Virus record (IMG/VR): IMGVR_UViG_2534681626_000023
Source: a virus
Taxonomy: Duplodnaviria; Heunggongvirae; Uroviricota; Caudoviricetes
Direction: 5' to 3' (one strand)
Length of the DNA: 15,519 nucleotides
The position numbers were made by a program, and so were the translations under genes. This document shows, in pieces, positions 1 through 15,519 of the stretch (positions within the stretch are counted from its first letter, which is position 1; each line of letters starts with the position of its first letter). Under the pieces are notes generated by a model, which was not told where the DNA came from, searched no databases, and was given only the letters and a program-made list of their open reading frames with translations.

Positions 1-1479
1 TCATTTTGTCGCCTCATTGCGCGGGGCAGGAATAAATTCGCCGTCATCAGTAATTTTTCCGTCCAGATATCCCGTTTTGTAATTTACGCCATAGCCATAT
101 CCCGAATGTTGTTCCTTCCAGATTAAGCGAACTTGTTTCGGATCAGCGGTGCGGTATCGCCAGAGCTGCGCGCCATCAAAGCTGTAAATGTAGCGGTTAT
201 CGCGGGCATACCATCTGCGCAAAAAGGGATGGTCATTAAGATGGGCTTCGCGTTCATCCGGAGAACGGTTATCCAGTAAGATCAGCGGTCCGTCAGATTC
301 AAACACATGTAAACCGGAATGGTATGGCCACCCTTCGGCACGCGTAAGTAAATAGCCGTGGCGTTTCCCGGCGTTGAAACGTTTGTTGATAATAAGATTG
401 GGATCATCAAGTTTCACGATTTCCAGCTTGCGGTCACCAGACTCTGTTTCGATGATGGTATAAAGCGAGTCCTGATACTGGGCGACAGCATCACTGATGG
501 GTTGAAACTGCTCCGGATCGAGTCCGGGTAATTCTTCCTGTTTACAAGCAGGTCCTTTACGCCAGAACACTTTCTTTTCCAGCAGAGAAAAATCCAGACA
601 GTGCTTTGTTAAATCTTCATCCCACGCCAGATTTTCCTTGTCGAGGACTTTACGCTGCAGCCCGTTTTTATCACGCCAGGTCAAGAGTGAGCCGGGCATC
701 CAGCGCACGACGGAAAAGGTGTCCGGGTCGGCATCAAGCTGTTCGCCGTTGATCAGGATTTTGGTCCGTGTACGAGCCAGGGTATCCCAGGGGCCAAATG
801 GCATAGCCACACAGGGATTAAACGCGGTAGAAAACTTTCCTCGCTGATCCCATGACTTTTGTGCCAGCACACGGAAACTATCGGGATCTGCGAGGCGATG
901 CCCATTGATATACAAGAAATTAGCGTCACGTAATATCAGCCCCAGTAAGTCAGGATCCCGGGGAGGCCGGAATTCCACCTGATGCAGTGTTTTGATATCT
1001 AAGCGATTTCCCCCGCCATTGTTATCTGTGCGCTTGCCTTCGAAATAGAGACTGTGTTTATCTGCGGCAAAATCACCCCACGCCTTGAACGAGGCGACAT
1101 CGACGGGAGGTTTGTCTGGCGGGGTTTGCACAACTTCACCCGCGTAGAGGATATAGCGACCATCGCTATGCAAGGAGTAATGAGGATACCAGGCCTGTGC
1201 GCCTTCATAGAGGTAGTCGGTTGTCAGATCAGTCAGAGGAGGTACTTTATCCCATTTGTCTAGTGTTGTCGGGTCTATTAATAAATTGGGTAAACGGCGC
1301 AAACTTTTGTAATTCACGTCAGGAAGAGAAAGATTTGTTTCTTTATAAGGGCGCAGGTATACCACGCCTTTTCCCTGTTTCTGGTAAATATTATGTTCAG
1401 GCGGATCAAGCCGACATCCCCATGCCGACGATAAAAACAATGAACAAGACAACAAACAAACCACATTGCGATAGTGCAT
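1..1479 (-). CDS. Host chromosomal gene, 5' part (about 492 aa in window; C-terminus runs off the window start). Predicted secreted or periplasmic protein of unknown function with an N-terminal signal peptide.
   Basis: Long minus-strand ORF open to position 1. The ORF track starts it at 1506, but 1494..1506 is Mu terminal sequence that happens to be open in frame. The first ATG on the host side is at 1479, preceded by AGGA (1490..1487) at 7-nt spacing. N-terminus MHYRNVVCLLSCSLFLSSAWGC has a basic n-region and hydrophobic core, typical of a Sec signal peptide. Family not recognised. Confidence 0.6.
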   Translation of the reverse strand: MHYRNVVCLLSCSLFLSSAWGCRLDPPEHNIYQKQGKGVVYLRPYKETNLSLPDVNYKSLRRLPNLLIDPTTLDKWDKVPPLTDLTTDYLYEGAQAWYPHYSLHSDGRYILYAGEVVQTPPDKPPVDVASFKAWGDFAADKHSLYFEGKRTDNNGGGNRLDIKTLHQVEFRPPRDPDLLGLILRDANFLYINGHRLADPDSFRVLAQKSWDQRGKFSTAFNPCVAMPFGPWDTLARTRTKILINGEQLDADPDTFSVVRWMPGSLLTWRDKNGLQRKVLDKENLAWDEDLTKHCLDFSLLEKKVFWRKGPACKQEELPGLDPEQFQPISDAVAQYQDSLYTIIETESGDRKLEIVKLDDPNLIINKRFNAGKRHGYLLTRAEGWPYHSGLHVFESDGPLILLDNRSPDEREAHLNDHPFLRRWYARDNRYIYSFDGAQLWRYRTADPKQVRLIWKEQHSGYGYGVNYKTGYLDGKITDDGEFIPAPRNEATK

Positions 1480-1493
1480 AAAGCCATCCTGGC

Positions 1494-1575
1494 TGAAGCG
1501 GCGCACGAAAAACGCGAAAGCGTTTCACGATAAATGCGAAAACTTTAGCTTTCGCGCTTCAAATGAAACAGCAGT
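1494..1575 (-). other. attR: Mu right-end attachment region (attR) with transposase MuA end-binding sites (R1-R3 type repeats); element terminus at 1494.
   Basis: Terminal TG dinucleotide at 1494-1495 followed by repeated CGAAAA / TTTCAC-containing motifs (CACGAAAAACGCGAAAG, GCGTTTCACGATAAATGCGAAAAC) resembling the MuA binding consensus. Recalled from the Mu literature, not computed. Confidence 0.75.
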
Positions 1576-1587
1576 ATTAATTACTGC
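1571..1587. terminator. Short hairpin (GCAGTA-TTAAT-TACTGC) between the mom stop and attR, with a T-run on the plus strand; possible weak terminator.
   Basis: 6-bp inverted repeat read directly. On the plus strand it is followed by TTTTTATTC, on the minus strand by TGTTTCATTT. Stem is AT-rich and short, so function is uncertain. Confidence 0.25.
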
Positions 1588-1608
1588 TTTTTATTCATTA
1601 CATGGGGA

Positions 1609-2304
1609 TCACTTAGGGTATGGCTGAACCCTGAATAGTTTGGTATTTAGCCGCTTCCTTGCTCGCTTGTTCAGGAATCTGATGTAGCGATACTGATTAA
1701 ATTTGTGCACCACGGCACGCTCTTTATTAGCCCGTAAATACACGCCTCGTTGTCCACCCCGCTTAATCGCGTTCATTGTTATCTCGTGATACCACTCACC
1801 ATCCAGCTCGTAGAACGTGCTTTCATGGCTGCCAATAAAATCAAAATTCGACGCCTGATACACAACGCCTGCGCGTCCGCAGCGTTCGTCAGCAAATGAC
1901 TGAACCCACTCCACTGACGGATACAGTAATCTGATAACTTTCAGCGCGTAGCTGATGGCCCGTGATTCAGAGTTGCGGGGCATGTCGTCGTGTAGCCACA
2001 TGCGATTCAACTCCATATAGCCCCGGTTATCCGTTTCAAGCACGACACGACGACCTGAGTTGGGGTTAAGGGCATATCCCCACTGGAGAACGCCAACCAG
2101 ATCGCGTCCGCTGAATACTCCCAGGTGGAGGTAAGAGTTATTCACAAAACGGCGGGAATAGTGCTTTGTCTGAATAATTGTGCGGGCCAGCCAGCAGGAT
2201 ATGGTTTCAACGCGCAGTTCCTTTGAACCATAGCCAACAATCTGGCCTTCATACTCAATAACGCACGGTTTCGTCAGAATGCGTGATTTTTTCTCTTTTC
2301 CCAC
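1609..2304 (-). CDS. mom: Mom DNA-modification protein (adenine methylcarbamoylation; anti-restriction), 231 aa, GTG start.
   Basis: ORF 1609..2334 translation matches the Mu Mom family as I recall it. I place the start at GTG 2304 rather than the track ATG 2334, because GGAG lies 7 nt upstream of the GUG and both sit inside a CCCAC...GUGGG hairpin (see 2300..2320), matching the known Com-dependent translational control. Overlaps com by about 50 nt. Confidence 0.88.
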
Positions 2305-2443
2305 AATGTTTCTCCGTGGGATGCTCGCAGGCATTCAGCATTATGATGTGACGTTTGCAACGCGGACACCTGATTTCAATGTGATCAAAGGAATCCGCCT
2401 TAAATAACAGTTTGTTGCAGTTTTTACAGCGAATTGATTTCAT
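2255..2443 (-). CDS. com: Com, zinc-finger translational activator of mom (62 aa).
   Basis: 62-aa [17 protein letters not shown]...[11 protein letters not shown] with two C-x2-C pairs (zinc-binding), located immediately upstream of and overlapping mom. Matches Mu Com as I recall it. Confidence 0.9.
2300..2320 (-). promoter_or_regulatory. mom translation-initiation hairpin that sequesters the SD (GGAG) and GUG start; target of Com translational activation.
   Basis: mRNA sequence CCCACGGAGAAACAUUGUGGG: CCCAC pairs with GUGGG, with GGAG and the GUG start inside the loop and 3' stem. Read directly; interpretation follows established Mu com/mom biology. Confidence 0.7.
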
Positions 2444-2555
2444 CTCACCTCCTTTGCATCAATTCGCCACTATCTTAAAAAACATCGTGGGTTGAGTGTG
2501 GTTATTGGGGCATAATCGATCTGTATTACCGATCGATTCAATTGATTCGATCGTC
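2444..2555 (-). promoter_or_regulatory. com-mom promoter and upstream control region with a cluster of three Dam GATC sites (2518..2521, 2531..2534, 2549..2552); expected OxyR and C-protein responsive region.
   Basis: Three GATC sites within 35 bp, read directly, about 75-110 bp upstream of the com ATG and overlapping the 3' end of gin. In Mu, methylation of such a triad blocks OxyR repression of mom and the late activator C binds near the promoter. Exact -35/-10 elements not assigned. Confidence 0.65.
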
Positions 2556-3119
2556 GTTTTCTATATGCGTTCGTTTGGCGGGGTGTTTTTTATACAGCGT
2601 TGACAGGGCCACATCGTAGATCAATGCGACCTGCTTGCGGGGGATTCCTTGTGCTAATAAACGCCCGGCCTGCTCCCATTCCGCTTTGGTTAGTTTAGGT
2701 GGTCGACCACCGATACGGCCTTTATTTCTGGCAGCAGCAAGTCCAGCCATCGTTCTCTCGATGATTAGTTCTCGTTCCATCTCAGCCAGGGCACCCATAA
2801 CGTGGAAGAAAAAACGCCCCATTGGAGATGACGTATCAATACTGTCAGTAAGACTGCGAAAATTAATCCCTCGCTCTCGTAATTCCCCTACGAGAGAAAT
2901 CAGATGTTTCATGCTTCGCCCGAGGCGATCCAGTTTCCAGACAACCAGCGTGTCACCTTTTTGAAGGCGCTTTAAAGCGCGTCTTAATCCCGGTCGGTCT
3001 GTCTTTGTCCCGCTTAATTTATCTTCAAATATTTGTTCACATCCTGCACAAACAAGAGCGTTTCGTTGCAAGTCTGTATTCTGGTCATTTGTTGATACCC
3101 TTACATAGCCAATCAGCAC
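2538..3119 (-). CDS. gin: Gin DNA invertase (serine recombinase of the Gin/Hin/Pin/Cin family), 193 aa, GTG start.
   Basis: Translation (V)LIGYVRVSTNDQNTDLQRNALVCAGCEQIFEDKLSG... carries the serine-recombinase catalytic motif RVSTNDQ and a C-terminal HTH region. The track starts at TTG 3137; I prefer GTG 3119, which is preceded by GGGAGA at 7-nt spacing and gives the Mu Gin N-terminus (M)LIGYVRVS. Confidence 0.9.
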   Translation of the reverse strand: MLIGYVRVSTNDQNTDLQRNALVCAGCEQIFEDKLSGTKTDRPGLRRALKRLQKGDTLVVWKLDRLGRSMKHLISLVGELRERGINFRSLTDSIDTSSPMGRFFFHVMGALAEMERELIIERTMAGLAAARNKGRIGGRPPKLTKAEWEQAGRLLAQGIPRKQVALIYDVALSTLYKKHPAKRTHIENDDRIN

Positions 3120-3173
3120 GCTGAATCTCCCGTCCAAAAGCGTAAATCATGCCATGCAGGTCAGAAACGGCCA

Positions 3174-3199
3174 TTATCTAAAACCTCGGTTTGCAGGAA
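3174..3199. repeat. gix: gix recombination site (gin-proximal), 26-bp core TTATCTAAAACCTCGGTTTGCAGGAA; inverted copy of 6309..6334.
   Basis: Read directly. It is in inverted orientation to TTCCTGTAAACCGAGGTTTTGGATAA at 6309..6334 (2 mismatches in 26) and lies within longer imperfect inverted repeats of about 92 bp (about 10 mismatches). Closely resembles Hin/Gin-family hix/gix sites. Central crossover dinucleotide at 3186-3187. Confidence 0.85.
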
Positions 3200-4270
3200 A
3201 CGGTAAATCTGGCTTCTGGCGCATTACAAAAAAACCAGAACGGCGCGGATATTCCTGATAAGGATCGCTTCCTGAGTAACATTAATGTTTACAGCAAAGG
3301 CGAGGTGGATAAGAAAAAAGGAATGCGGCAGTACGCATTTAATGCGCCGTCTAATGCAGTTGGTGGAAAGTGGTATCCAGTTATTTTCCGGCGTTCCACA
3401 GGCAGCACTGGCGAGCTGGCTTCCAGAGTGATTATAACGACCACATCTGCCACTGGTGATTACGCAATGAATAACTGCGAATTCAATGGAATGGTAATGC
3501 CTGGTGGCTGGACTGATCATGGTTCATATGCGGCAGGTTATTTTTCGACGTATCAGACTAATGAGCGCGCAATCCACTCCATTGTAACAAGCCTTAAAGA
3601 AGATGATGTATGCAGCGTTTTTTACGTTGAAGGCAGGGCTTTTCCTGTGCGGGTTTCTGCTGAAGAAGGGCTAACGGTTATTGTTCCAACTCAGGATTAT
3701 ACCGTCGGTCAAACAACATATAAGTGGGGAGCAACTAATCCCGCGACAGAAAGCACGAACGCACAAGCCATTCTGGATTTTAACAATGGGCGAGGGTTTT
3801 ATTGTTCTCACTCAATATTCGGTATTAATGCCATTTTTAGCGGAAATCTGGGGATTGGAACGGCTAATGCCCTGGGGGGAAATTCAATAGTTTTAGGAGA
3901 TAACGATACTGGGTTTAAACAAAATGGTGATGGGGTGCTGGATGCTTATGCTAATGGTGTGCATGTGTTCCGCTTTCAGAACGGTACGTTACAGAGCAAA
4001 AAAGAAATAAGTATCACTGGGCGGATATTACCGTCTGATTTCAGTAATTTAGATTCCCGATATGTAAAAGATGTTCGGCTTGGCTCACAGCAATATTATG
4101 GTGTGAACAACTGGCAAACATGGAATTTCCAGTGCCCGTCAGGTCATGTATTATCTGGTATTAATGTTCAGGATACAGGGTCCAATTCTGCCGATAATAT
4201 AGCGGGTGTTTATTACAGACCAGTTCAAAAGTATATAAATGGCACTTGGTATAATGTAGCGAGCGTTTAA
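3191..4270 (+). CDS. S: Silent alternative tail-fiber variable cassette (Sv-type), promoterless and start-less; would be fused to the constant S N-terminus after inversion (predicted fusion about 530 aa).
   Basis: ORF open from the gix site with no credible own start (the track M is a TTG inside the repeat). N-terminal residues [21 protein letters not shown] mirror the junction of the expressed fiber, and the C-terminal tip ...[12 protein letters not shown] is paralogous to the expressed tip ...CINGTWYNAGSI. Frame checked: in phase with Sc after inversion. Confidence 0.8.
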
Positions 4271-4271
4271 T

Positions 4272-4799
4272 ATGATGCACTTAAAGAACATAAAAGCAGG
4301 TAACGCTAAAACACTGGAGCAGTATGAGTTAACAAAGAAGCACGGAGTCATCTGGCTTTACTCTGAGGACGAAAAAAACTGGTATGAGGAAGTGAAAAAC
4401 TTTCAGCCAGACACAATAAAGATTGTTTACGATGCAAATAATATTATTGTCGCCATCACTAAAGATGCCTCCACGCTTAACCCTGAAGGTTTTAGCGTCG
4501 TTGAGGTTCCCGATATAACAGCCAACCGCCGCGCTGATGATTCAGGAAAGTGGATGTTTAAGGATGGAGCTGTAGTTAAACGGATTTATACGGCAGACGA
4601 ACAGCAACAACAAGCCGAATCACAAAAGGTCGCGTTGCTTTCTGAAGCTGAAAGCGTTATTCAGCCACTGGAACGCGCTGTCAGGCTGAATATGGCGACG
4701 GATGAGGAACGCACACGACTGGAGTCATGGGAACGCTACAGCGTTCTGGTCAGCCGTGTGGATACAGCAAATCCCGAATGGCCACAAAAGCCTGAGTAA
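4272..4799 (+). CDS. U: Tail fiber assembly protein, alternative copy (175 aa), currently in the silent orientation.
   Basis: Begins 1 nt after the Sv stop. N-terminal 120 aa are clearly paralogous to the 177-aa minus-strand chaperone (MMHLKNI.AGN.KT.EQY.LTK...WYEE.KNFQPDT...[18 protein letters not shown]). Tail-fiber assembly chaperone family by position and similarity. Confidence 0.85.
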
Positions 4800-4804
4800 A
4801 AATT

Positions 4805-4824
4805 AAGGCCCAATATCGGGCCTT
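4805..4824. terminator. Hairpin (AAGGCCC-AATATC-GGGCCTT) shared by the convergent U and U' genes at the centre of the G segment; likely bidirectional terminator.
   Basis: 7-bp GC-rich stem read directly, lying in the 28-bp gap between the two convergent stop codons (4797..4799 and 4828..4830). On the minus-strand transcript it is followed by AAUUUUUA. Confidence 0.45.
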
Positions 4825-4827
4825 CTC

Positions 4828-5361
4828 TCATTCTGGTTGTTCGGGAAACGTTACTGGCAGGCTGGAGGTGTCTGTAGATTCGACTTTCTGCGCATAGAGC
4901 ATCCACTCGGTTAATTTTTGTTTATTCTCGTCGGAAATGATGCCCAGCCGTAGCTGTGAGTCCCATAGCTGGGTTTTATCCCTGACAAGTTGCAACAGGC
5001 TTTGCTTTTCATTTTCCGCTTGTTGCCTCTGCTCTTCCTCGGTATAAGTTCGCTTTATCACTACGCCATCTTTGAACAACCATTTCCCCGAAATATCAGC
5101 CCGGCGATTTGCTGTAATATCAGGTAATTCAACGACGCTTGCGCCTTCCGGATTAATTGCTGAAACATCCTTTTCAATACAAATAATAACGCCGTTATGG
5201 TCATAGACCATTTTCAAAGTGTCTGGCTGGAAATTCTTTTGTTCCTCATACCAGTTTTTTCCATCATCTGAATAAAGCCATTTGATGTTAAATTGCTTTG
5301 TTAGCTGGTATTGCTCTTTTGTTTTAGGGTTGCCAGCAGTAATATTTTTTAAGTGCATCAT
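4828..5361 (-). CDS. U': Tail fiber assembly protein, currently expressed copy (177 aa).
   Basis: Immediately downstream (minus strand) of the expressed tail fiber gene. Paralogous to the plus-strand 175-aa copy. Confidence 0.85.
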   Translation of the reverse strand: MMHLKNITAGNPKTKEQYQLTKQFNIKWLYSDDGKNWYEEQKNFQPDTLKMVYDHNGVIICIEKDVSAINPEGASVVELPDITANRRADISGKWLFKDGVVIKRTYTEEEQRQQAENEKQSLLQLVRDKTQLWDSQLRLGIISDENKQKLTEWMLYAQKVESTDTSSLPVTFPEQPE

Positions 5362-5363
5362 AA

Positions 5364-6830
5364 TTAAATACTCCCCGCGTTATACCACGTTCCATTAATG
5401 CAATACTGAATTGGCCTTGCCTGAGTTATATCAATTAATTCATCACGGTTTCCGTTAACTGAACCAGTAACGACATAACCTGACCTGTCAGACCAGCCAG
5501 GACCATTCCATGTCTGAACAGATGACAGACCGCCAAGGCGAATACCTGTAATAAACCTTGAGTTACATTCTGCCTGCGTATATGCACCAACATCTCCCGC
5601 AGAGGGTTTGCGTGTTGTGGTGTAAAACTCTGACCAGTTAGCTTCAAAGCCATAACCATCACGCGCTGAACGATAAAAGATACCGCCATTTCTGTAATTC
5701 ACGCGGAACTGTACAGCAGGGCAACTCCCCGCATTCATATTAAAGTGGAGGATTAATGTCGATGCGCCACTGATATCTGCATCATAAACGCCGCTATTCC
5801 AGTTCCAGCCAACAGCTTTATCATTTGCGACCCTGCGTCCTGTTTGCCCTAAAGCAAATGCAGGCTGCTGGTTTTTCGTGTTGTAGTCTCGTCGCCAGCC
5901 AGGAGCGTAAGCATCACCATGATTAATATAAGTGAATTGAGCGTTAGTGATTCCGCCACCGCTGGACGTGCTCGGCGTGGTAACGCGTATGGTCATTGCG
6001 CCGCGGGTGCCAATAACTTCCACCACAGCACCTGCAAGACAAATATTTCCGCAACCTGTATCTGTAATGACCTTATTATTTGCATAAGCCCATGAGCCTT
6101 TGCACATCCAGTAAGGATGGTTAAATGCCCCCTGACTCTCCAGCCACGAAATAAATTGCGCAGTTGTCCAGACCTGACTATCGCCACCAATATTCAGCCA
6201 TGCGCTATATGCGCGACAGGCCCCAATATTTTTGGTGAAGGTATCTTTTCCCGGAATATCTGCGCCGTTCTGTTTTTTCTGTAATGCGCCAGAAGCCTGA
6301 TTTACCGTTTCCTGTAAACCGAGGTTTTGGATAAACAGCGGCTTATTGGGAATATCTGCTCCGTTCCGGTCTTTTGCCAGACGGGCATTGGCATTATCCA
6401 TCGCAATTTTCACCGCTTTTGCGGTGGCTGCCAGCGTTTCACTGGGGCTGTCAGTGGCACTGGTTAGCTGAACGAGGCCTTTTTTGTTCAGGCTGGCATC
6501 CCAGATATCCAGATTTTCACGTGCTGTACGCTGTGCTGATGCCCCGGCAATTTTAATTTCGCTGAGGTTATTTTTTATCAGCAGCGCGTTATTGCTCATA
6601 ATGGCTTTAATGGACAGTGCAAGCTGGTTTAATTTTGTTTTATCCGGTTGAATACCGGCTTCTTCCAGCGTGTTTAATAACTCCGCCTGCACAATATTAA
6701 ACCAGTCCATACCGGGCCATGTGATAGCATTATTCCCGTCACCTTCTGAAAACCAGCGAACGATAGCACTACGCTGGGCGGATACGGGCGGCATGACGGT
6801 TACGCCGCTGTCGTTATCAATATAAAACAT
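5364..6830 (-). CDS. S': Tail fiber protein in its currently expressed form (488 aa): constant N-terminal part Sc (6322..6830, outside G) fused to the variable cassette inside G (5364..6321).
   Basis: ORF crosses the gix site at 6309..6334 (encoding [11 protein letters not shown]). Its start ATG at 6830 overlaps the stop of the upstream baseplate gene. Assignment as the S' (G-minus) form is an inference from the sizes 488 versus about 530 aa and chaperone lengths 177 versus 175 aa. Confidence 0.85.
   Translation of the reverse strand: MFYIDNDSGVTVMPPVSAQRSAIVRWFSEGDGNNAITWPGMDWFNIVQAELLNTLEEAGIQPDKTKLNQLALSIKAIMSNNALLIKNNLSEIKIAGASAQRTARENLDIWDASLNKKGLVQLTSATDSPSETLAATAKAVKIAMDNANARLAKDRNGADIPNKPLFIQNLGLQETVNQASGALQKKQNGADIPGKDTFTKNIGACRAYSAWLNIGGDSQVWTTAQFISWLESQGAFNHPYWMCKGSWAYANNKVITDTGCGNICLAGAVVEVIGTRGAMTIRVTTPSTSSGGGITNAQFTYINHGDAYAPGWRRDYNTKNQQPAFALGQTGRRVANDKAVGWNWNSGVYDADISGASTLILHFNMNAGSCPAVQFRVNYRNGGIFYRSARDGYGFEANWSEFYTTTRKPSAGDVGAYTQAECNSRFITGIRLGGLSSVQTWNGPGWSDRSGYVVTGSVNGNRDELIDITQARPIQYCINGTWYNAGSI
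6309..6334. repeat. gix: gix recombination site (tail-gene-proximal), 26-bp core TTCCTGTAAACCGAGGTTTTGGATAA, located inside the tail fiber coding sequence.
   Basis: Inverted copy of 3174..3199. Central crossover dinucleotide GA at 6321-6322. Confidence 0.85.
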
Positions 6831-7372
6831 TAGTTATCTCCGTCATGGTAAACAAATTTATAAATCTGATGCGCGGGTTTATATTTCTCCAGTAAACATT
6901 CCAGCGCACCCGATTCATAAACACGTAACGGCGTCAGAACATTATCCAGCACCGTTGCGTTGCGATAATTTTTAATACCGTAAATATTGACCTGCGTAAC
7001 CCACTGGCCTTCTGTGGAATCCGTCAGCCTGACGGTAAAACCGTACTGCGCAGCCAGCCATTCATAAAAGCGCCGACTCAGATTGCCGGTCATACGCATT
7101 TTATTCGCGGCAGCCCGCCGGCGTTCTGACAGGGTGCCGTTTTCGCTTGTACAGTCCGGCAACCCCAGAAATGATTCCCACTCACCCAGATACCAGCGGG
7201 ATGTGGACGGGAAACGCTCCCGCAGCATTTGCCGCGCATCATCCGCCGCAGTGGCAATCACGTCGCTGATGGCCTGCGCCAGCGCAGATAATTTGCTGTC
7301 GGGGCTTTTATTCCAGGCAAGCCCTGACGGCAGTAATTGCAGAAAGGCCGTCTGCCAGGGTGTTACAGCCAT
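6830..7372 (-). CDS. R: Baseplate wedge protein (Mu gp48 / P2 gpI-like), 180 aa.
   Basis: Position between the J-like baseplate gene and the tail fiber gene, size, and translation (MAVTPWQTAFLQLLPSGLAWNK...) consistent with the gp48 / DUF2313-type family. Stop overlaps the S start. Confidence 0.8.
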   Translation of the reverse strand: MAVTPWQTAFLQLLPSGLAWNKSPDSKLSALAQAISDVIATAADDARQMLRERFPSTSRWYLGEWESFLGLPDCTSENGTLSERRRAAANKMRMTGNLSRRFYEWLAAQYGFTVRLTDSTEGQWVTQVNIYGIKNYRNATVLDNVLTPLRVYESGALECLLEKYKPAHQIYKFVYHDGDN

Positions 7373-8445
7373 TCAATTGTCCCCGGTGTTAACAGTTCCG
7401 TATTCTCCGAACGCTGGATGTCTGTCGGGAAACGCACTTCAAAATCATCCAGACCGGTAACACCTGCCACCGCACGGATAATACGGGAGGGGGCAAGTGC
7501 ACCGCCCGGCGTCACCTCATTAAAAAACATGGTATTAATGGCGTGAGTAATAGCCTGTTTCAGTTCGGCTGTCTTCGGCGATATATAAATCCGTGGATTT
7601 ACCGGCTTTGCCTTTGGTGCAAATACCGTGACATTTACACCATCAGGCTGTCCGACAATCAGGCCGGTTATCGGGTCAGTATGACCGGCGATATAATCCG
7701 CCACGCGTTCCACATCTGCCGGTTGTGGAAAAATATTGCTCCGGTTATCCATAACAAACGTCACCCCGACTGTGCCACCGCCTTTCCATGTCGGAAAAGA
7801 CCAGGCACGGGTAACGCCGCTGACTTCACGTGCCCAGCGAACATAATCAAACTGATTACCGCCGAACGGAGGATACTGGACACGATATTCCAGCCGTGAC
7901 AGCAGCTCCGCTGCACTCTCAATATCAGCTCCACCGGAAAACCCTTTTACAGTGATGGCATCGGAAACAACACTGGCAACCGGGGTGATCAACGTTAAAA
8001 GGGTATTCTCACCGGTATTTCCTGCCTCACCGGCAGCCAGTGCGGTAACGGTAATTTCCGTCGTTCCTGCACGGTCAATCACAATGGCATCAGCCAGGCT
8101 GTAAACCACACCATCAGCACGCTGCCAGCGTGTACCGGCAGGAATGGTGGTCGCTGCCGATGTGGTGACAGTCAGCGGGCCGCTGGCGGCTGTCGCCTGT
8201 TTGCGGCGCACGCCCCAGAACCGGCAGTGCTCCAGCAACTCATCTTCATCTGCTGTCGACGGGATAATCTGCCGTCCAACCCATGAAATATGCTCGTGAA
8301 AACCGGCAGCAAGGCCCGCCTGAGCATAAGCAATGGCACTCAGCGTTTTTTCACGGGCCTGAGGCCAGCTACCCGGCAGGCGCTGTTCAATATTCTGTTC
8401 TGTACGGGCAATCAGCGATGATAATGTCGGTGGTGAATAAGCCAT
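7363..8445 (-). CDS. W: Baseplate J-like protein (Mu gp47), 360 aa.
   Basis: Size and position in the baseplate module. Overlaps the downstream gene by 10 nt. Family assignment from recalled Mu/P2 baseplate organisation. Confidence 0.8.
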   Translation of the reverse strand: MAYSPPTLSSLIARTEQNIEQRLPGSWPQAREKTLSAIAYAQAGLAAGFHEHISWVGRQIIPSTADEDELLEHCRFWGVRRKQATAASGPLTVTTSAATTIPAGTRWQRADGVVYSLADAIVIDRAGTTEITVTALAAGEAGNTGENTLLTLITPVASVVSDAITVKGFSGGADIESAAELLSRLEYRVQYPPFGGNQFDYVRWAREVSGVTRAWSFPTWKGGGTVGVTFVMDNRSNIFPQPADVERVADYIAGHTDPITGLIVGQPDGVNVTVFAPKAKPVNPRIYISPKTAELKQAITHAINTMFFNEVTPGGALAPSRIIRAVAGVTGLDDFEVRFPTDIQRSENTELLTPGTIEWL

Positions 8446-8883
8446 TTAAACCCCGTTAAATGCTGCTTTAAACTCATAAGGAATAACGGAACCATCCGGT
8501 AATGTCAGTGCAATGTAGAGGTATAACCAGCCCTGATGTAACTGTTCCGCTCTGACGTTAATCGCACTCACCCGGCCCGCTGTTTTCAGCCATTCCAGCG
8601 CCTCTTCGGCATACCCTCTGGCGCGTTCCAGCGTATCCGGTGTGGCTTTTTCACGTGATAACAGCCACAACCGCGAACCGATGGGGCGGTCGCGGTAACT
8701 GTCACCCCACCATCCACGGCGATCATCTGAACCATCCGGCAGCGTGTCAGAATCCAGCGCGCGCCGGTCGGTAAACAGGGAGATTGTCACATCGGTCGTC
8801 AGACTGTCGTCGGTCAGCATATCAATGCCATCCTGTGCAATATCGCCGCGTCCGTTCGTCCAGATAATGGCTAAATCGGTCAT
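8446..8883 (-). CDS. V: Baseplate protein (Mu gp46; T4 gp25 / P2 gpW-like), 145 aa.
   Basis: Small acidic protein directly between the spike and J-like genes. Its stop abuts the next start. Confidence 0.75.
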   Translation of the reverse strand: MTDLAIIWTNGRGDIAQDGIDMLTDDSLTTDVTISLFTDRRALDSDTLPDGSDDRRGWWGDSYRDRPIGSRLWLLSREKATPDTLERARGYAEEALEWLKTAGRVSAINVRAEQLHQGWLYLYIALTLPDGSVIPYEFKAAFNGV

Positions 8884-9473
8884 TGCATCGGCCCCGTGGT
8901 TCCGCCGCTGTCGCCACGGTGGATATGCTTATCCGTCGATTTGCCATTGATGATGGCATCCGGGGCAGTAATATTGCTGTCGAACTGGCTTTTACCTTTA
9001 ACGCCCAGACCTTTCTGGATCTCAACGTCGCCGGTAAACGTGGTTCTGGGTGTATCAACGGTCATGCTTTCATCAGCGTAAATCTCAACCGTTTTACAGG
9101 TAATGATGCAGCGCCCGTCCTTTGTCAGCCTGATACGATGCCCCTCGTGGTGGTAAATGCCAGCATCACCCGGTTCAAGATTTGTCGGGCGGTAGCGGCG
9201 GTCTTCCACCACAACGGCAATCCCCTGATCACGTTGTGCACCCACACAGGCAATCAGCGCCTCTGCGCCCGGCAGAGGAACGCTGAAATGCCCGTAATTT
9301 TGCAGGCGCTCTACTTCATCGGATTCCTCATCATCCAGCAGACCGACCTGCAGGTTCTGAACCTTTCGCCCGTCGTTAATCACGTTAACAACAGCGCGCG
9401 CAAGCATCAGGCGTACACGACGCATCAGCGGTGTCAGCAGGCGGTTCATGGCGGAATCATTTACTCTTTCCAC
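8880..9473 (-). CDS. Q: Baseplate central spike / puncturing device (Mu gp45; P2 gpV-like), 197 aa.
   Basis: 197-aa ORF with beta-rich C-terminal region (…TFTGDVEIQKGLGVKGKSQFDSNITAPDAIINGKSTDKHIH) typical of gpV-type spikes. ATGA overlap with the downstream gene. Confidence 0.8.
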   Translation of the reverse strand: MERVNDSAMNRLLTPLMRRVRLMLARAVVNVINDGRKVQNLQVGLLDDEESDEVERLQNYGHFSVPLPGAEALIACVGAQRDQGIAVVVEDRRYRPTNLEPGDAGIYHHEGHRIRLTKDGRCIITCKTVEIYADESMTVDTPRTTFTGDVEIQKGLGVKGKSQFDSNITAPDAIINGKSTDKHIHRGDSGGTTGPMQ

Positions 9474-10594
9474 GGCGGCGTTTTCTCCGGGTGTCTGCGA
9501 TAATAATCTTCAACCAGCGCATCAACGCCATCATTACCATCCCCTCTGGATTTGCGGTCACTTTCAACCGGCACCAGAAAGCCTTCGCGTGGCGCAAGGC
9601 TGACACGGGTTTTCAGCCCGTCCTGGTCATTCAGTATCAGGTTAACTTTGCTGACCAGTAATTCCGTGGTTTTGATGGCATATTTCGAGGCATCAATAGT
9701 GACCAGCAGGTTCGGCATCCAGAGTTGCCCGTCCCTGCGAGTCCATCCGTCAATTTCAGCCTCAAAGGTGATGGATTTTGCCAGTCTGCGGCGTTGCTCA
9801 CGCAGGGCGCGGGCCTGTGCATCCTTCGCCGTAATTTTGCTGTCGGCAATGATGATCATCGGTCTGTAACGGGTTACATCACTGTCAGTGGCGGTCCCTT
9901 TCCGGGAGACGATACTTTTCGCATCAATATCATCACCCTCAGCGCCGTTTGCGCGGGCATAACCCTTGACAATGTATTCGCTGAACCGGTCACGGAAATC
10001 TTCGTCAAAATCCACCGTCAGCAGATTTTTCCCGAGGATCAGCTCATCAGTGACCGTACTGGCAGCCCGGCTGAATACCAGCTCTCCGGCGGCATTGCTG
10101 GTCATCAGTACACCACGTGCGCGGGAGGCCCGCACCAGCGCTTCATAAACCGTTTCTGAATGGTCAAGCGTAAAAGACGGAAACGACGCTGCGCTTTCCT
10201 TGTCTGACAGTTCCCAGCGAACGGTGACGCCATAAGGGGCGCACAGGTCACGTGCAATCTGTTCCAGTGTGCGTTTTTTCCACTGTCCGCCACGGTAAAC
10301 GGCAGCACAGTCAATCAGGTCAGCCGTTTTGTCGCGTCCGGCGACAGTGATTTTCATACTGTCAGCGGTCATCTGGCGTCGCCGTGAATCGATATAACCG
10401 GTGCAGACAATCTGCCCGTCGATTTCGAGCGTGAACTTCTTCCCCGGAGCCAGCCCGGATAAATCCGTGCCCGGTGGCACGTTCACCCCCAGCTCAAAAT
10501 ATCCGGCTACGGATTCAATCGAGCGGGTGACAGAGACTGACGTCCAGCCGGTAAAAAGCCTGCCATCCGTTCGCAGCGTGACGGTATTACTCAT
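9461..10594 (-). CDS. P: Baseplate hub protein (Mu gp44; P2 gpD-like), 377 aa.
   Basis: Size and position immediately downstream of N. 8-nt overlap with the N stop. Confidence 0.8.
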
Positions 10595-12074
10595 TAATCA
10601 CCTCAATACTGACGCCACCGGGAACAAACAACGGGTTGCTGATACCGTTCCTGCGGGCCAGCCGTTGCCAGTTCCGGCTGTTTCCTGTGTAACGGTACAG
10701 GGCCACCATTGCAGGCATCGTCTCCGGCAGGCGGTGCGTTTCACTGCCCGCCAGTTGCAGCCCGCGTTTTTCCAGGTCGGCAACAACCAGCAGACGCAGT
10801 TGTGTAAGCTGAACGCTGTCTGTCGAAAATCCCTGCTCAGATGCCGTCAGAATGACGGTATCCAGTGCAGCCCCCAGCATGGCGGCTGTTTTTCCGATAT
10901 CGGACACACTTTCAAATACCGGGGGCGTGGCTGTACCACTGTCTGAAAAGGATACCTGTGAAAAGCCGCCGTCCGGGGTTATGGCAGTTAACTGTAACTG
11001 TCCCTGTGTGACGGTAGCAGATGTGCTGCTGGCCCCGCTGGCTGTGCCGGTTGTGGTGGACGGGGCATCCAGTACAGGTGCACGGGCGGCATTATCCCTC
11101 CGGCGACTGAAATCCAGTGCCGCAGTCAGTGCCTGGCTGGCAGCTTCTGCCCGGAATGTCTGCGCCGCTGCCAGCATGACGTAGTTCAGTGTGGCAATAT
11201 TTTTTTTTGCAACCGGACTGTTGTACGAGGTTGTGATTGCCCCCTGTCTGCCTGCGGTGTCGGCATGGCGACGTTCGAACCGCTGCGCCAGACGGTTCCA
11301 GGTGGAAAATGCTGTCCGGGTATCGCATAACGATGAAACGCCGGACAGCGCCCCCATCAGCGAGGAGGCCAGCATGGCAGGCTGGTTAATCAGGCTGGTC
11401 ACAGAGCCTTTCATCGCAGAAAGCGATCCCATCAGACCGCTGACAGTCTGCGTAACCCCCAGATTGTCCACCGCATCACTGATATCATCGATAACACCGG
11501 TTACAGCTTCTATCACGGCGGTTGCCGCCGCAGTGCCATCTTTTACGGTCTGCCAGACAGAGGACAGCGTATCTCCCAGAGAACCGGTTACAGCAACGGC
11601 CTGTGCCGGTACGACTGCACTGGTGTCTGTCTCTGCGTCCGGGGCAGTATCCTGCAACGACGGATAAACGGTAACGGTGAACGCGTAATAATTCAGTTCA
11701 TCCGCTTTAGTGCGGCATTCCCATGAATCCACCATGACGTCCACAGTGCCGAAATCAGGATGTACCAGCTCACCGTTACCCGGAGCATCAAGAGCATCCA
11801 TCAGCGCACCCGCTTCATCTCTGGCTGTTTCTGCGTTGCTGTTCAGAATGCAGGCGCTGAATGTACGGGAGCGAAGCTTTTTCCCCAGGTCATTGACGCC
11901 TCCGGTATCACGTAACGGGTACTCGCGTTTAACCAGGCGACGTCCGCCAGCCTGTTTTTGCTCCTCGATGACGAGAAACGGCACGTTACGGAACGTGCCT
12001 TTGCCGGTTGTTTTCCTGCCTCCACCGGTTTTATCCCGGACAGCATTAACGGCATTTAAAGCATCTTCAAACAT
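10587..12074 (-). CDS. N: Tail protein N (Mu gp43, historically called DNA circularization protein), 495 aa.
   Basis: Large ORF directly after the tape measure gene, with Ser/Thr/Ala-rich central region. Size matches Mu N (about 490 aa). Confidence 0.8.
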
Positions 12075-12078
12075 GGTT

Positions 12079-14154
12079 TTACCAGCCTGTAATGTAGTTA
12101 TCGCCCGCGTAAATATTCAGCCCCATACCATCCTCGGTGACGCGGGAACTGGTCAGACGTAACCCCTCGCCAAGTTCGACGCGCAGCGAGGCTTCCGCAT
12201 TGACTTTTTGTTCCTGCGGTTCCTTATCCGTGACCGTCCATTTCTGATACAGGTCGGTTACAAAACCGCCCAGATACTCCCCGGCGACACTGCCCAGCGT
12301 GGCACCGGCAACCGTACCCAGCGGTCCGGCAAGGCTGCCAACGGCACCGCCGAGCCATGCACCGGCTGTACTGCCAATTGCGCCTGCTTTTTCATGGGTT
12401 GACGCCTGCTCATCCATCAGGACGGGGGCAAGCTGGAGTGCCCCCATTACCGGGCCACCCAGACGTGACAACGCACGACCGGCACCTTTCCCCATCCAGC
12501 CCAGCGCCCCGGCACCTTTTGTCACAACCCGACCGATCGCACTGCCTGCAAGTTTGTTTCCGATACCGGAAAACCACCCGCCAGCGGCACGCCCGGCATC
12601 AGCCAGCTTTCCGACCGCTCCCGTAACCAGTTGCCCGGCAGCACTGCCTGCAAGCCTGCTCAGAAGACCGGATTTACCGGGTAAAGGTAATGGTGCAGGC
12701 CGTGCCGTTACCGGTACGCCGGGTGGGGGTAATGCCAGAACAGGGCGTGGTGCAGGTAATGCCAGCGGCTGTGGCCCGGACAGCAATAACGGCTGGCGGG
12801 GTAACAGGGGCGTCATGCCTTTGCCTTTCCGGGTGCGACCACCACGGCCACCGCTTCCGTAACCGCCGAACCCGTGAGGCCAGTTAGTGACAAACACACG
12901 CTGAATGCCGATACCCTGCAACAGCGTCTCAGACGTCATGGCATCCGGGACCGGCAGACCTGCCTGCCCACGTTTGCGGTTTCGCATCCAGCGCCACATA
13001 CGACGCCCGGTTTTAAACGGATAACTGGCAACCTGCCATGAGGGTTTTGCCACGGCCCAGCCTGCTCTCAGGGCTTTATTGGCAAGCCAGACAGACACCA
13101 GAACAGCAGCCAGTTTTTTCAGGCTGACAATATTCTGGTCAACCCATGCCAGCGCATCTTTACCCGGTTTCAGCCAGCGCCATAATTCCTGCGCCGCGAT
13201 TTTTACCTTTCTGAACGTGGTCAGGAATTTCTGACCAATGTTTTCTGCCAGTGCGTCCAGCTCCCCGGATTTATCCGCCGCATCGTGCCAGTTAAGCACC
13301 CGGCGCATCTCGTTCTTGATTTCTTCAAAGGGGCCGCTGTTTGCCACCTTCGTGCGAAACTCAAGCAGGTTGCCCTCCATCTGGGCCATCATCCCGTCCC
13401 AGGAGTTCATGGCAGCCGCCTGTGCGCCTTCTGACTGCTCCAGCAGGGTCCGGAATACCGTCAGAATGGCTTTCTTGCCCAGCTTGCCTTTTTCACCCAG
13501 CTTACGGATTTTTTTCTCATCCTTACCCGTTGCATCTGCCAGCACCTTGTAAACGTTGATACCGTAACCGGTCAGCAGGTTGGCGTCCGCCGCCGTGATT
13601 TGCTGGCGGGCAAACATCTGTTTGAACTGTAACGAAGCCCCCTGCGCGGTGGGTAAATCCCAGCCATGCATCGCGCCCTGATTCTGTAGCATGGTGATGA
13701 ACTGTTTTACCTGGGCGTCAGTCATGCCAAACGCCGTTGATGTGCGGATTTCCTGCAGAACGCCGCCCAGCCCCCAGGTGGTTTCTTTTGCGTTCTGCTT
13801 CGCCCACGCCATCATGGCCTGTGCTCTGGCCTTATCGCCGTGATACAGCGAGTTCATGGCGATAATCTGCTGCTCACGCTGGGCGGCGGCACCAATAAAC
13901 AGTTTATTGGCGGTGTAACCCACGCCAGCGATACCCAGCGCCCCGGCTGACAGCATTCGGAATGTACGGGTTGACAGTGAACCCATTCTGTCAATGGCAC
14001 CAGAAACGCGCACAACCTCCATACGCAGGGCACGAAGGGAACTTTGTCCGCTACGGGACAGGGCGTTTATCTGGTTCGAATACTCGCGGGAACGCCGGGA
14101 AAGATTGCCATTAAGATCAATAATGACAGACGCCTTTAAGCGTTTCCCGGTCAT
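12079..14154 (-). CDS. Y: Tail tape measure protein (Mu gp42), about 691 aa from the ATG at 14154; the ORF track extends it to an upstream ATG at 14247 (722 aa).
   Basis: Longest tail ORF, with a Pro-rich segment and C-terminal Gly/Ala-rich GxxxG-type hydrophobic repeats typical of tape measure proteins. ATG 14154 has a good SD (AGGA, 7-nt spacing); ATG 14247 has a poor one. Start is uncertain. Confidence 0.8.
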
Positions 14155-14298
14155 AGAGATTTCCTGATTTAACGGTGATATTGAGAGAGGGTTTTCGCCT
14201 GCTGGCAGTGCCGGAAAAAGCGGGACAGCGGGAGAGACAAGGCCCATTCCGGGCCACTTTTCAGAATAACGCCAATCGCTGTCGCCGCTTTCTCAATA

Positions 14299-14733
14299 TC
14301 ATTCCGGCACCGCAGCCACTCGCCCCCGTTCTTGCGTCAGCGATGCCGCCACAGCCATGTCGTGCATCTCTGTGGCCAGCGACAGACGCTGGAAGTCATC
14401 GACGGACAGCTTGCGCATCAGCGCCAGCGATAACGGGCCTTTGATGCAGCCCACGCTGGCAATCTGTCGGCGCAGCATTTCCAGTCCCATCCGGGACGGG
14501 GAACTGACCAGCACCGGGCCTTCCTTGCTCATTACCAGCTTTTCAGCCGCCGCCTGGGCATCAATCAGATCGCCTGCGGTCAGTTCACGCAGTGTCACGT
14601 CATACTGCATTTCAGTCTCGTCACCGGTGCCGAACGCCAGGCCGTCTTTCAGTTTCAGGCCACCGGACTGAAGCTCAGCCACAATACTGTCACGCAGTTC
14701 CTGTGCTTCAGGACTTAAATTCATTTCGTCCAT
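14299..14733 (-). CDS. Tail assembly chaperone (Mu gp41-like), 144 aa.
   Basis: Acidic small protein between the tail tube and tape measure genes, the conserved chaperone position. RBS AAGGGG upstream of the ATG at 14733. Confidence 0.75.
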   Translation of the reverse strand: MDEMNLSPEAQELRDSIVAELQSGGLKLKDGLAFGTGDETEMQYDVTLRELTAGDLIDAQAAAEKLVMSKEGPVLVSSPSRMGLEMLRRQIASVGCIKGPLSLALMRKLSVDDFQRLSLATEMHDMAVAASLTQERGRVAAVPE

Positions 14734-14742
14734 TGTTTCCCC

Positions 14743-15099
14743 TTATGCAATGCGTTTGCTTTTTTTTGCCGTCAGTACCAGCGAAATTTCGCCGCCGTCG
14801 TTTTTCGGTTCATCCGCCTGCCAGGCATTCGCCAGCATCCAGGTTTCACCGGTATCAGCCTGGAATTCGACGGTGATGTTTTCCCAGTCGATAATTTCAT
14901 CCAGCCCGATGGGACCGCCCCCCGGAATTTTGCATTCCACTTTTGCGGCACGTGGTTTACCTTTCCAGCCATAAACCCGCGAGCCGGTCACTTCTTCACG
15001 GGTGGTGCCGGAAGGCGTGAAGGAGGCACCTTCCATTGATTCAAGCTCCATGCCATTGACACGGATGAACGCCACCCCCTGACGCTGATTTCCAGCCAT
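14743..15099 (-). CDS. M: Tail tube protein (Mu gp40), 118 aa.
   Basis: 118-aa ORF directly downstream of the sheath gene, with a strong RBS (AAGGAG). Size matches the Mu tube protein. Confidence 0.85.
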   Translation of the reverse strand: MAGNQRQGVAFIRVNGMELESMEGASFTPSGTTREEVTGSRVYGWKGKPRAAKVECKIPGGGPIGLDEIIDWENITVEFQADTGETWMLANAWQADEPKNDGGEISLVLTAKKSKRIA

Positions 15100-15108
15100 A
15101 AATGCTCC

Positions 15109-15519
15109 TTACAGAATGAACTGAACTTGTGCCGCGAAAATGCGGAACTGGTTAATCAGATTCGGGCCGCACAGCACATCAAGACGGTCTTTGTCGTCCT
15201 TGTTACGTGCCACATACAGCTCCTCTTTGAACGTGTCGAAATCCTCGACCAGTCCGGCGTTTTCCCATTCTTCAAACAGTGCCAGCAGCTCCGTTTTGAT
15301 CACGGATGGCGTCACCACGGCCTGACCGGTGGCAAAGCGGGTGCCATCACTTGCCAGCTTGTGGTTCGGGAATTTCTGCGTGATGCGGGTTCGCAGCGAA
15401 TAACGCAGATAACTCAGCGTGGCGATGGTATTCACGTTCAGATAAGACGGATCGCTGTCACCATACTTGTTCGTGCGGTACATCGTGATCATGCGTTCAA
15501 TCTGCATTTCACCACCATC
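15109..15519 (-). CDS. L: Tail sheath protein (Mu gp39), C-terminal part only; N-terminus lies beyond the window end.
   Basis: ORF open to the window edge with no upstream stop. Position immediately upstream of the tube gene. The track M at 15507 is internal. Confidence 0.8.

Follow-up and report, generated by a model that had tools for sequence, protein, structure and literature searches.

Right-end junction of a very probable Mu-like prophage upstream of a DKNYY-like gene, most likely silent, in the cyaY-lptM islet of Escherichia coli

Prophage insertions of phage Mu are classically strongly polar in either orientation, and the classical Mu (and Mud) insertion mutations place an element of ~37 kb between a gene and its upstream signals, with loss of expression downstream. 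For the target of transposition, a stricter in-vitro consensus than N-Y-S-R-N, 5'-CYSRG, which is ~7-fold preferred in vivo, has been described by Walker and Harshey (PMC7350765). The mom promoter of the phage (Pmom) is weak and cannot work without the late activator C; in lysogens OxyR and Fis keep it silent, and the mom product is cytotoxic (PMC3378877).

The stretch of DNA analysed here, referred to as the window (15,519 nt), very probably crosses, at position 1494, the attR junction between an E. coli chromosome and a natural Mu-like prophage of the genus Muvirus, with the adjoining host gene most likely silent. The insertion is textbook Mu biology in a natural isolate, of a kind already known and involving no new mechanism. 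It agrees with a Mu prophage end in all the defining features that were compared, namely the terminal sequence, the right-end gene block, a non-specific site with an empty allele, and the target preference. Unlike the classical Mu and Mud mutants, it occurs in a natural isolate, and it lies in the leader of a gene whose open reading frame and Shine-Dalgarno (SD) sequence are wholly spared. The features on which the following account draws are these:

1..1479, minus strand: host gene, encoding a 492-aa DKNYY-like protein with the N-terminus MHYRNVVCLLSCSLFLSSAWGC..., signal-peptide or lipoprotein-like (ORF list and translation)
1487..1490, minus strand: Shine-Dalgarno AGGA with a 7-nt spacer to the ATG, on the gene side of the insertion (direct reading; kept in all aligned alleles)
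1489..1493, no strand assigned: target pentamer CTGGC, abutting the Mu terminus; presumed copy of the 5-bp target-site duplication (D5 empty site and fit to N-Y-S-R-N)
1494..1571, no strand assigned: Mu right terminus (attR), with the terminal TG (identical to the end of AF083977)
1588-1570, 1555-1536 and 1529-1513, minus strand: three weak predicted terminator-like hairpins, in the mom sense (pattern scan and folds)
1609..2334, minus strand: mom (DNA modification), pointing at the host gene (full length, 99.6% aa identity to Mu Mom; Pfam Mom)
2255..2443, minus strand: com, translational activator of mom (100% aa identity to Mu Com)
2444..2537, minus strand: Pmom regulatory region, with three GATC (Dam/OxyR) sites and a T-stretch (129/131 identical to Mu; promoter annotation of AF083977)
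2538..3119, minus strand: gin, G-segment invertase (full length, 98.4% aa identity to Mu Gin)
3174..6334, no strand assigned: invertible G segment (inverted repeats 3174-3271 and 6237-6334)
6830..15519, minus strand: tail and baseplate genes gp48, gp47, gp46, gp45, P, N, tape measure, gp41, M and the C-terminal 136 aa of L (tblastn, Pfam)

When positions 1494-4300 were compared with the phage collection by megablast, base 1494 coincided with the last base of Mu (AF083977, position 36717; 97.0% identity) and also with the last base of Shigella phage SfMu (position 37146; 97.8%). SfMu (KP010268) was the best phage match, the 97.8% identity extending over 70% of the 2.8 kb and ending at its last base. 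Moreover, 1494-1571 is identical to the Mu terminus at 78 of 78 positions, the first differences being found at 1572-1573; in Mu this stretch carries the MuA-binding sites R1-R3, which lie within the terminal ~80 bp. A preliminary description of this DNA, made from the letters alone, had placed the Mu terminus at the TG of position 1494, and the alignment, which reaches the final Mu base with all 78 terminal nucleotides identical, bears this placement out.

Beyond the terminus, the element shares with phage Mu (AF083977 / NC_000929) the terminal 78 nt, the gene order and the gene orientation: G segment, gin, com, mom and phage end follow one another as in Mu, and mom is transcribed outward. 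The Pmom region matches at 129 of 131 positions, and the tail, baseplate, Gin, Com and Mom proteins are 93-100% identical. Indeed, all 17 Mu proteins from L to Mom gave full-length matches by tblastn at 93-100% aa identity, except for the variable parts of the tail fibres and for L itself, which is cut because the end of the window (15519) is the end of the contig; the window contains the right 14,026 nt of the phage, and these are intact. In contrast with Mu, overall nucleotide identity is ~97%, and the variable parts of the tail fibres have diverged to 47-88% aa identity (Sv ~47% over only 83 aligned residues, S' 88%), which implies a host range different from that of Mu. The G segment also lies in the orientation opposite to that of the reference record, that is G(-) relative to AF083977, with the S'/U' parts joined to the constant part of S.

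On the host side, direct reading gives CTGGC at 1489-1493 and TG at 1494-1495, where the Mu end opens with TGAAGCGGCGCACGAAAAACGCGAAAGCG. The plus strand at 1475-1500 reads ...atagtgCATaaagccatCCTGGC|TGAAGCGGCGCACGAAAAACGCG..., and the minus strand over the junction reads GCCAGGATGGCTTT-ATG. Positions 1-1493 of the window are 99.9% identical to E. coli strain D5 and to many other E. coli chromosomes. The unoccupied allele of the near-isogenic D5 reads ...CATCCTGGC|GCGAGG..., or, in longer reads, ...CCATCCTGGC|GCGAGGTGCCGATCAC and ...CATAAAGCCATCCTGGC|GCGAGGTGCCGATCAC..., and holds CTGGC once; the empty site is continuous across 1493 in D5 and in many other strains. When complete genomes were compared with a 200-nt probe that had the junction at its centre, the host half of the probe matched thousands of them, and these matches end at probe base 100, the equivalent of window position 1493. 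Since host homology stops at 1493 and the empty site contains a single CTGGC, the break falls exactly at 1493/1494, and the chief value of the analysis is for annotation, as it fixes the prophage boundary to the nucleotide. A comparison with an uninterrupted copy of the locus had been proposed in the preliminary description, with contiguous host DNA from 1494 onward in homologous loci as the outcome that would speak against an insertion; in D5 and the other strains examined, the locus runs uninterrupted across 1493 with one CTGGC, and 1494 onward is not contiguous host DNA.

The pentamer CTGGC (1489..1493) had also been said to fit the Mu target consensus N-Y-S-R-N, and read directly it does so, agreeing in addition with four of the five positions of the strict CYSRG. 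Because a random pentamer fits N-Y-S-R-N with a probability of 1/8, this agreement alone is weak evidence. Nevertheless, ten other natural right-end junctions were read, from elements encoding the identical Mom protein or situated in the same islet, and nine of them fit N-Y-S-R-N (binomial p ~7e-8 against 1/8); eight of these came from the Mom-identical loci and one was the islet junction of strain MIN10, the exception being TGCAC at L018. This proportion argues that the laboratory-derived N-Y-S-R-N rule holds for natural lysogens in this phage lineage.

Concerning these natural relatives, Mom is identical in several of the E. coli Mu-like prophages (found in strains W, SE11, E24377A and MIN10, among others), and the index of the assembly collection lists the identical 241-aa Mom protein in 488 blocks, spread over many unrelated places in the chromosome. 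The closest complete prophages, however, are only ~94-97% identical over the 14 kb, and other natural Mu-like prophages occupy different, apparently random sites with N-Y-S-R-N pentamers, none of them the CTGGC site described here. Mu-type right ends were detected in 40 of 5,426 complete E. coli genomes (~46 right ends in total), several of which are laboratory strains or belong to the E. coli W family; 29 of these 40 genomes, all matching a 120-nt right-end probe, were at least 99% identical to the probe. With Mu-type prophages present in <1% of complete E. coli genomes, the locus enlarges a small collection of natural insertion sites by one.

According to the proposed mechanism, the MuA transpososome would have joined the phage 3'-OH ends to a 5-bp staggered cut at CTGGC, after infection or a round of transposition, the cut site lying in the 5' leader of the putative lipoprotein gene of DKNYY type in the cyaY-lptM islet. 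Gap repair should then leave CTGGC at both Mu ends, the attL copy being a prediction. In the sense of the gene, a simple insertion would give at attL 5'-GTGATCGGCACCTCGC-GCCAG-TGTATTGATTCACTTG-3', that is, host upstream DNA, the pentamer and the Mu left end (TGTATTGATTCACTTGAAGTACG). The source contig stops within gene L, so that attL lies on another contig of the draft assembly, and the left 23 kb of the phage, with c, ner, A, B and the head genes, lies outside the window. The predicted attL junction (CA+CTGGC+host) was absent from the GTDB representative genomes, and the more general pattern of Mu left end, N{0,12} and host was absent from the JGI metagenomes; likewise, none of the chimeric or neighbouring small ORFs predicted at attL was present in the protein collection. 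The 90%-cluster representative is a different allele, from a single ENA contig.

In the complete E. coli genomes, the two halves of the junction probe were never found together (0 of 5,426). The junction was found in two near-identical, independent draft assemblies, GCA_000358795.2 and GCA_000357345.2 (WGS prefixes APYR01 and APYP01). Contig APYR01000170.1 of the former shows no difference from the window in 1,493 nt of host DNA and in 9,986 nt of Mu, the latter being the part of the phage DNA that the comparison covered, while APYP01000072.1 of the latter differs at 2 of 11,822 nt. The source is a fragmented draft assembly, in which a Mu contig could in principle have been joined to an unrelated host contig, but such a chimera is exceedingly improbable: the break lies where transposition predicts it, precisely at the last nucleotide of Mu and next to an N-Y-S-R-N pentamer, and the recovery of the identical junction in two separate assemblies excludes a one-off assembly error.

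Alternatively, the element could be what remains of an old or defective Mu, such as one whose left half has been deleted or has decayed, given that the right 14 kb alone is visible, that the contig ends inside gene L and that the contig of GCA_000357345.2 stops 329 nt inside Mu. We consider this unlikely, since all 17 genes seen are of full length, their products showing 93-100% aa identity to those of Mu, the terminus and Pmom hardly differ from their Mu counterparts, the junction proved strain-specific when more than 5,400 genomes were compared, and the flanks are almost identical to those of empty-site strains (3 of 7,493 nt differ between the host flank and the empty site of D5). The combination of a rare junction, a near-identical flank and intact genes supports a recent, lineage-specific lysogenisation, in keeping with the preliminary description, which had seen here a recent lysogen and not an ancient domesticated prophage; the junction count of 0 in 5,426, the 3 differences in 7,493 nt of flank, the Mu-identical terminus and the full-length Mu genes of the window all point the same way. 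As a separate observation, the contig ends inside gene L and 329 nt into Mu might reflect a second Mu-like copy collapsing the assembly.

Of the two paralogous DKNYY-like genes that lie in the accessory islet between cyaY and lptM of E. coli, the host gene is the first. In D5 this islet, situated between cyaY and lptM/dapF, comprises one DUF3304 gene and two DKNYY-like genes. The match of the host protein to Pfam DKNYY scored 19.9 bits, under the 25-bit cut-off. The ORF ends with a TGA at positions 3-1 and, with its ATG at 1479-1477, is separated from Mu base 1494 by the 14 bp of 1480-1493; the insertion point lies 3 bp upstream of the AGGA. It had been stated that Mu inserted 14 bp upstream of the start codon and left the SD and the coding sequence intact. 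The coordinates are right for the ATG, which is the best-supported start, and both the AGGA (1490-1487) and the 492-aa ORF are whole.

As regards the start codon, PGAP, the annotation pipeline of NCBI, is inconsistent at the locus. It calls a GTG located 30 nt upstream in D5, MIN10 and 200177 (502-aa product), and the ATG in the alleles of 98207, MS20645 and MB53; the gene call in GCA_000358795.2 also uses the ATG. If the GTG were the true start, Mu would lie inside the coding sequence after codon 5 (in codon 6) and the gene would be disrupted, although an N-terminally shortened protein could still come from the internal ATG. This is possible but doubtful. Besides the 502-aa annotations, the reading frame is open upstream of the ATG and the 30 nt between GTG and ATG are well conserved; yet the three substitutions within these 30 nt comprise two non-synonymous and one synonymous change, and this mostly non-synonymous pattern gives no sign of purifying selection on a coding frame. 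Furthermore, PGAP itself uses the ATG in three other alleles, the AGGA is optimally spaced before the ATG with no comparable SD before the GTG, and the ATG product opens in canonical fashion with a short basic n-region and a hydrophobic core, followed by ...AWGC, whereas the added MIGTSRQDGF would make an acidic, atypically long n-region. From these sequence features the ATG appears better supported than the GTG as start codon. Under either model, the upstream signals are lost to the host gene.

The junction also explains why a mechanically called ORF (1..1506) runs into phage DNA. This ORF takes up a spurious GTG within the Mu end, and the resulting chimeric 501-aa product had no record on look-up.

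What the insertion took from the gene can be judged from uninterrupted alleles. In alleles without the upstream DUF3304 gene, only 189 nt separate the host gene from the divergent lptM, and these alleles share a conserved block reaching ~105 nt upstream of the ATG. In fact, the ~60-105 nt before the ATG are conserved across otherwise diverged alleles, including the pseudogene remnant of K-12, with a mean pairwise identity of 91.7% for -60..-1 vs 80.7% for +91..+270, and this stretch is probably a promoter or leader, judging by its conservation. Given the 189-nt spacing and the ~105-nt block, the native promoter is expected in the DNA now displaced to attL; we infer from this location that any native promoter has been moved away by ~37 kb. 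In the empty site, scanning the DNA upstream of the gene for a native sigma-70 promoter gave no consensus-like site, and Rfam searches of the conserved leader and of the whole window recognised no known RNA element. The idea that the leader is strikingly more conserved than the gene was rejected, the difference being only moderate (91.7% vs 80.7-88.3%).

In the lysogen, ~37 kb of phage DNA would part the SD and ATG from everything upstream of -14, and the remaining 14 bp are too short for any promoter. Moreover, a scan of 1300-3300 on either strand found no sigma-70-like site that could act as an outward or hybrid promoter. With no promoter in the 14 bp and with Pmom silent in lysogens, the host gene would be promoterless and silent; we infer that it is most likely a promoterless silent allele, as in a classical polar Mu insertion. 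The DKNYY-like gene can accordingly be flagged as probably silenced in this strain.

A contrasting reading is that the host gene is now driven from within the prophage, by read-through from Pmom or from the gin promoter across com-mom and attR. The arrangement would permit it: the host gene shares the minus strand with gin, com and mom, its SD and ATG have survived intact 14 bp past the Mu end, the three intervening hairpins are weak, and the scan for terminator-like sites gave none between gin and com on that strand. We nonetheless hold it to be improbable, because Pmom depends on C and, in lysogens, is shut off by OxyR and Fis (PMC3378877), three terminator-like hairpins stand between the mom stop codon and the Mu end, and late-lytic expression would be confined to cells about to lyse. 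In addition, as mom expression is cytotoxic, strong transcription through com-mom in a lysogen would be selected against (PMC3378877). Read-through into the host gene would therefore be at most weak and late in lytic growth. The preliminary description was right that mom shares the strand of the host gene and is aimed at it, mom, com and gin all being on the minus strand. Its further claim that the gene could now only be transcribed by read-through from Pmom stands in part: "only" is too narrow, gin lying upstream on the same strand and being expressed in lysogens, and Pmom is silent there. Since Pmom is silent in lysogens, the practical consequence of the insertion would be silencing and not re-wiring.

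The hairpins between mom and the host gene (1588-1570, directly 3' of the mom stop codon, 1555-1536 and 1529-1513) have predicted folding energies of -8.4, -10.0 and -9.3 kcal/mol, respectively, with imperfect U-tracts, so that they may let some transcription through. The terminator pattern scan gave 7 sites in 1300-3300 vs 2.0 +/- 1.5 in shuffled sequences, and the whole 143-nt stretch that holds the hairpins has a folding z of -3.8. The hairpin at 1570-1588 has a 7-bp stem without mismatches, AGCAGTA/TACTGCT, and is flanked on each side by T-rich tracts, unlike reference Mu, where the stem has 2 mismatches; the perfect stem also occurs in most natural E. coli Mu-like prophages. This hairpin may be a bidirectional terminator.

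The same islet has received Mu-like DNA on another occasion. In strain MIN10 (NZ_CP069677), a Mu-like prophage has independently entered the neighbouring DKNYY gene; it is oriented oppositely relative to the locus and shows a perfect 5-bp duplication, TCGGC, at both ends (L002 4000-4005; L006 3686-3692), the flanks reading ...AAAGA-TCGGC-TGAAGCGG... and ...CAATACA-TCGGC-TGTATG.... The MIN10 duplication lends indirect support to the one predicted for CTGGC. Two Mu-like insertions thus fall within ~3.7 kb of one islet, for which the probability under uniform targeting is ~0.02, a figure calculated post hoc. It is very unlikely, in our judgement, that the cyaY-lptM DKNYY/DUF3304 islet is a recurrent, favoured or selectively tolerated Mu landing site, or, in a related reading, that a host envelope protein has come under late-lytic (Pmom) control; selection for neutral sites suffices to explain two insertions in one islet. 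Apart from its islet insertion, the MIN10 chromosome is of interest in that it has two Mu-type right ends, at 3,096,479 and 4,971,977, which points to a double lysogen or to intragenomic transposition.
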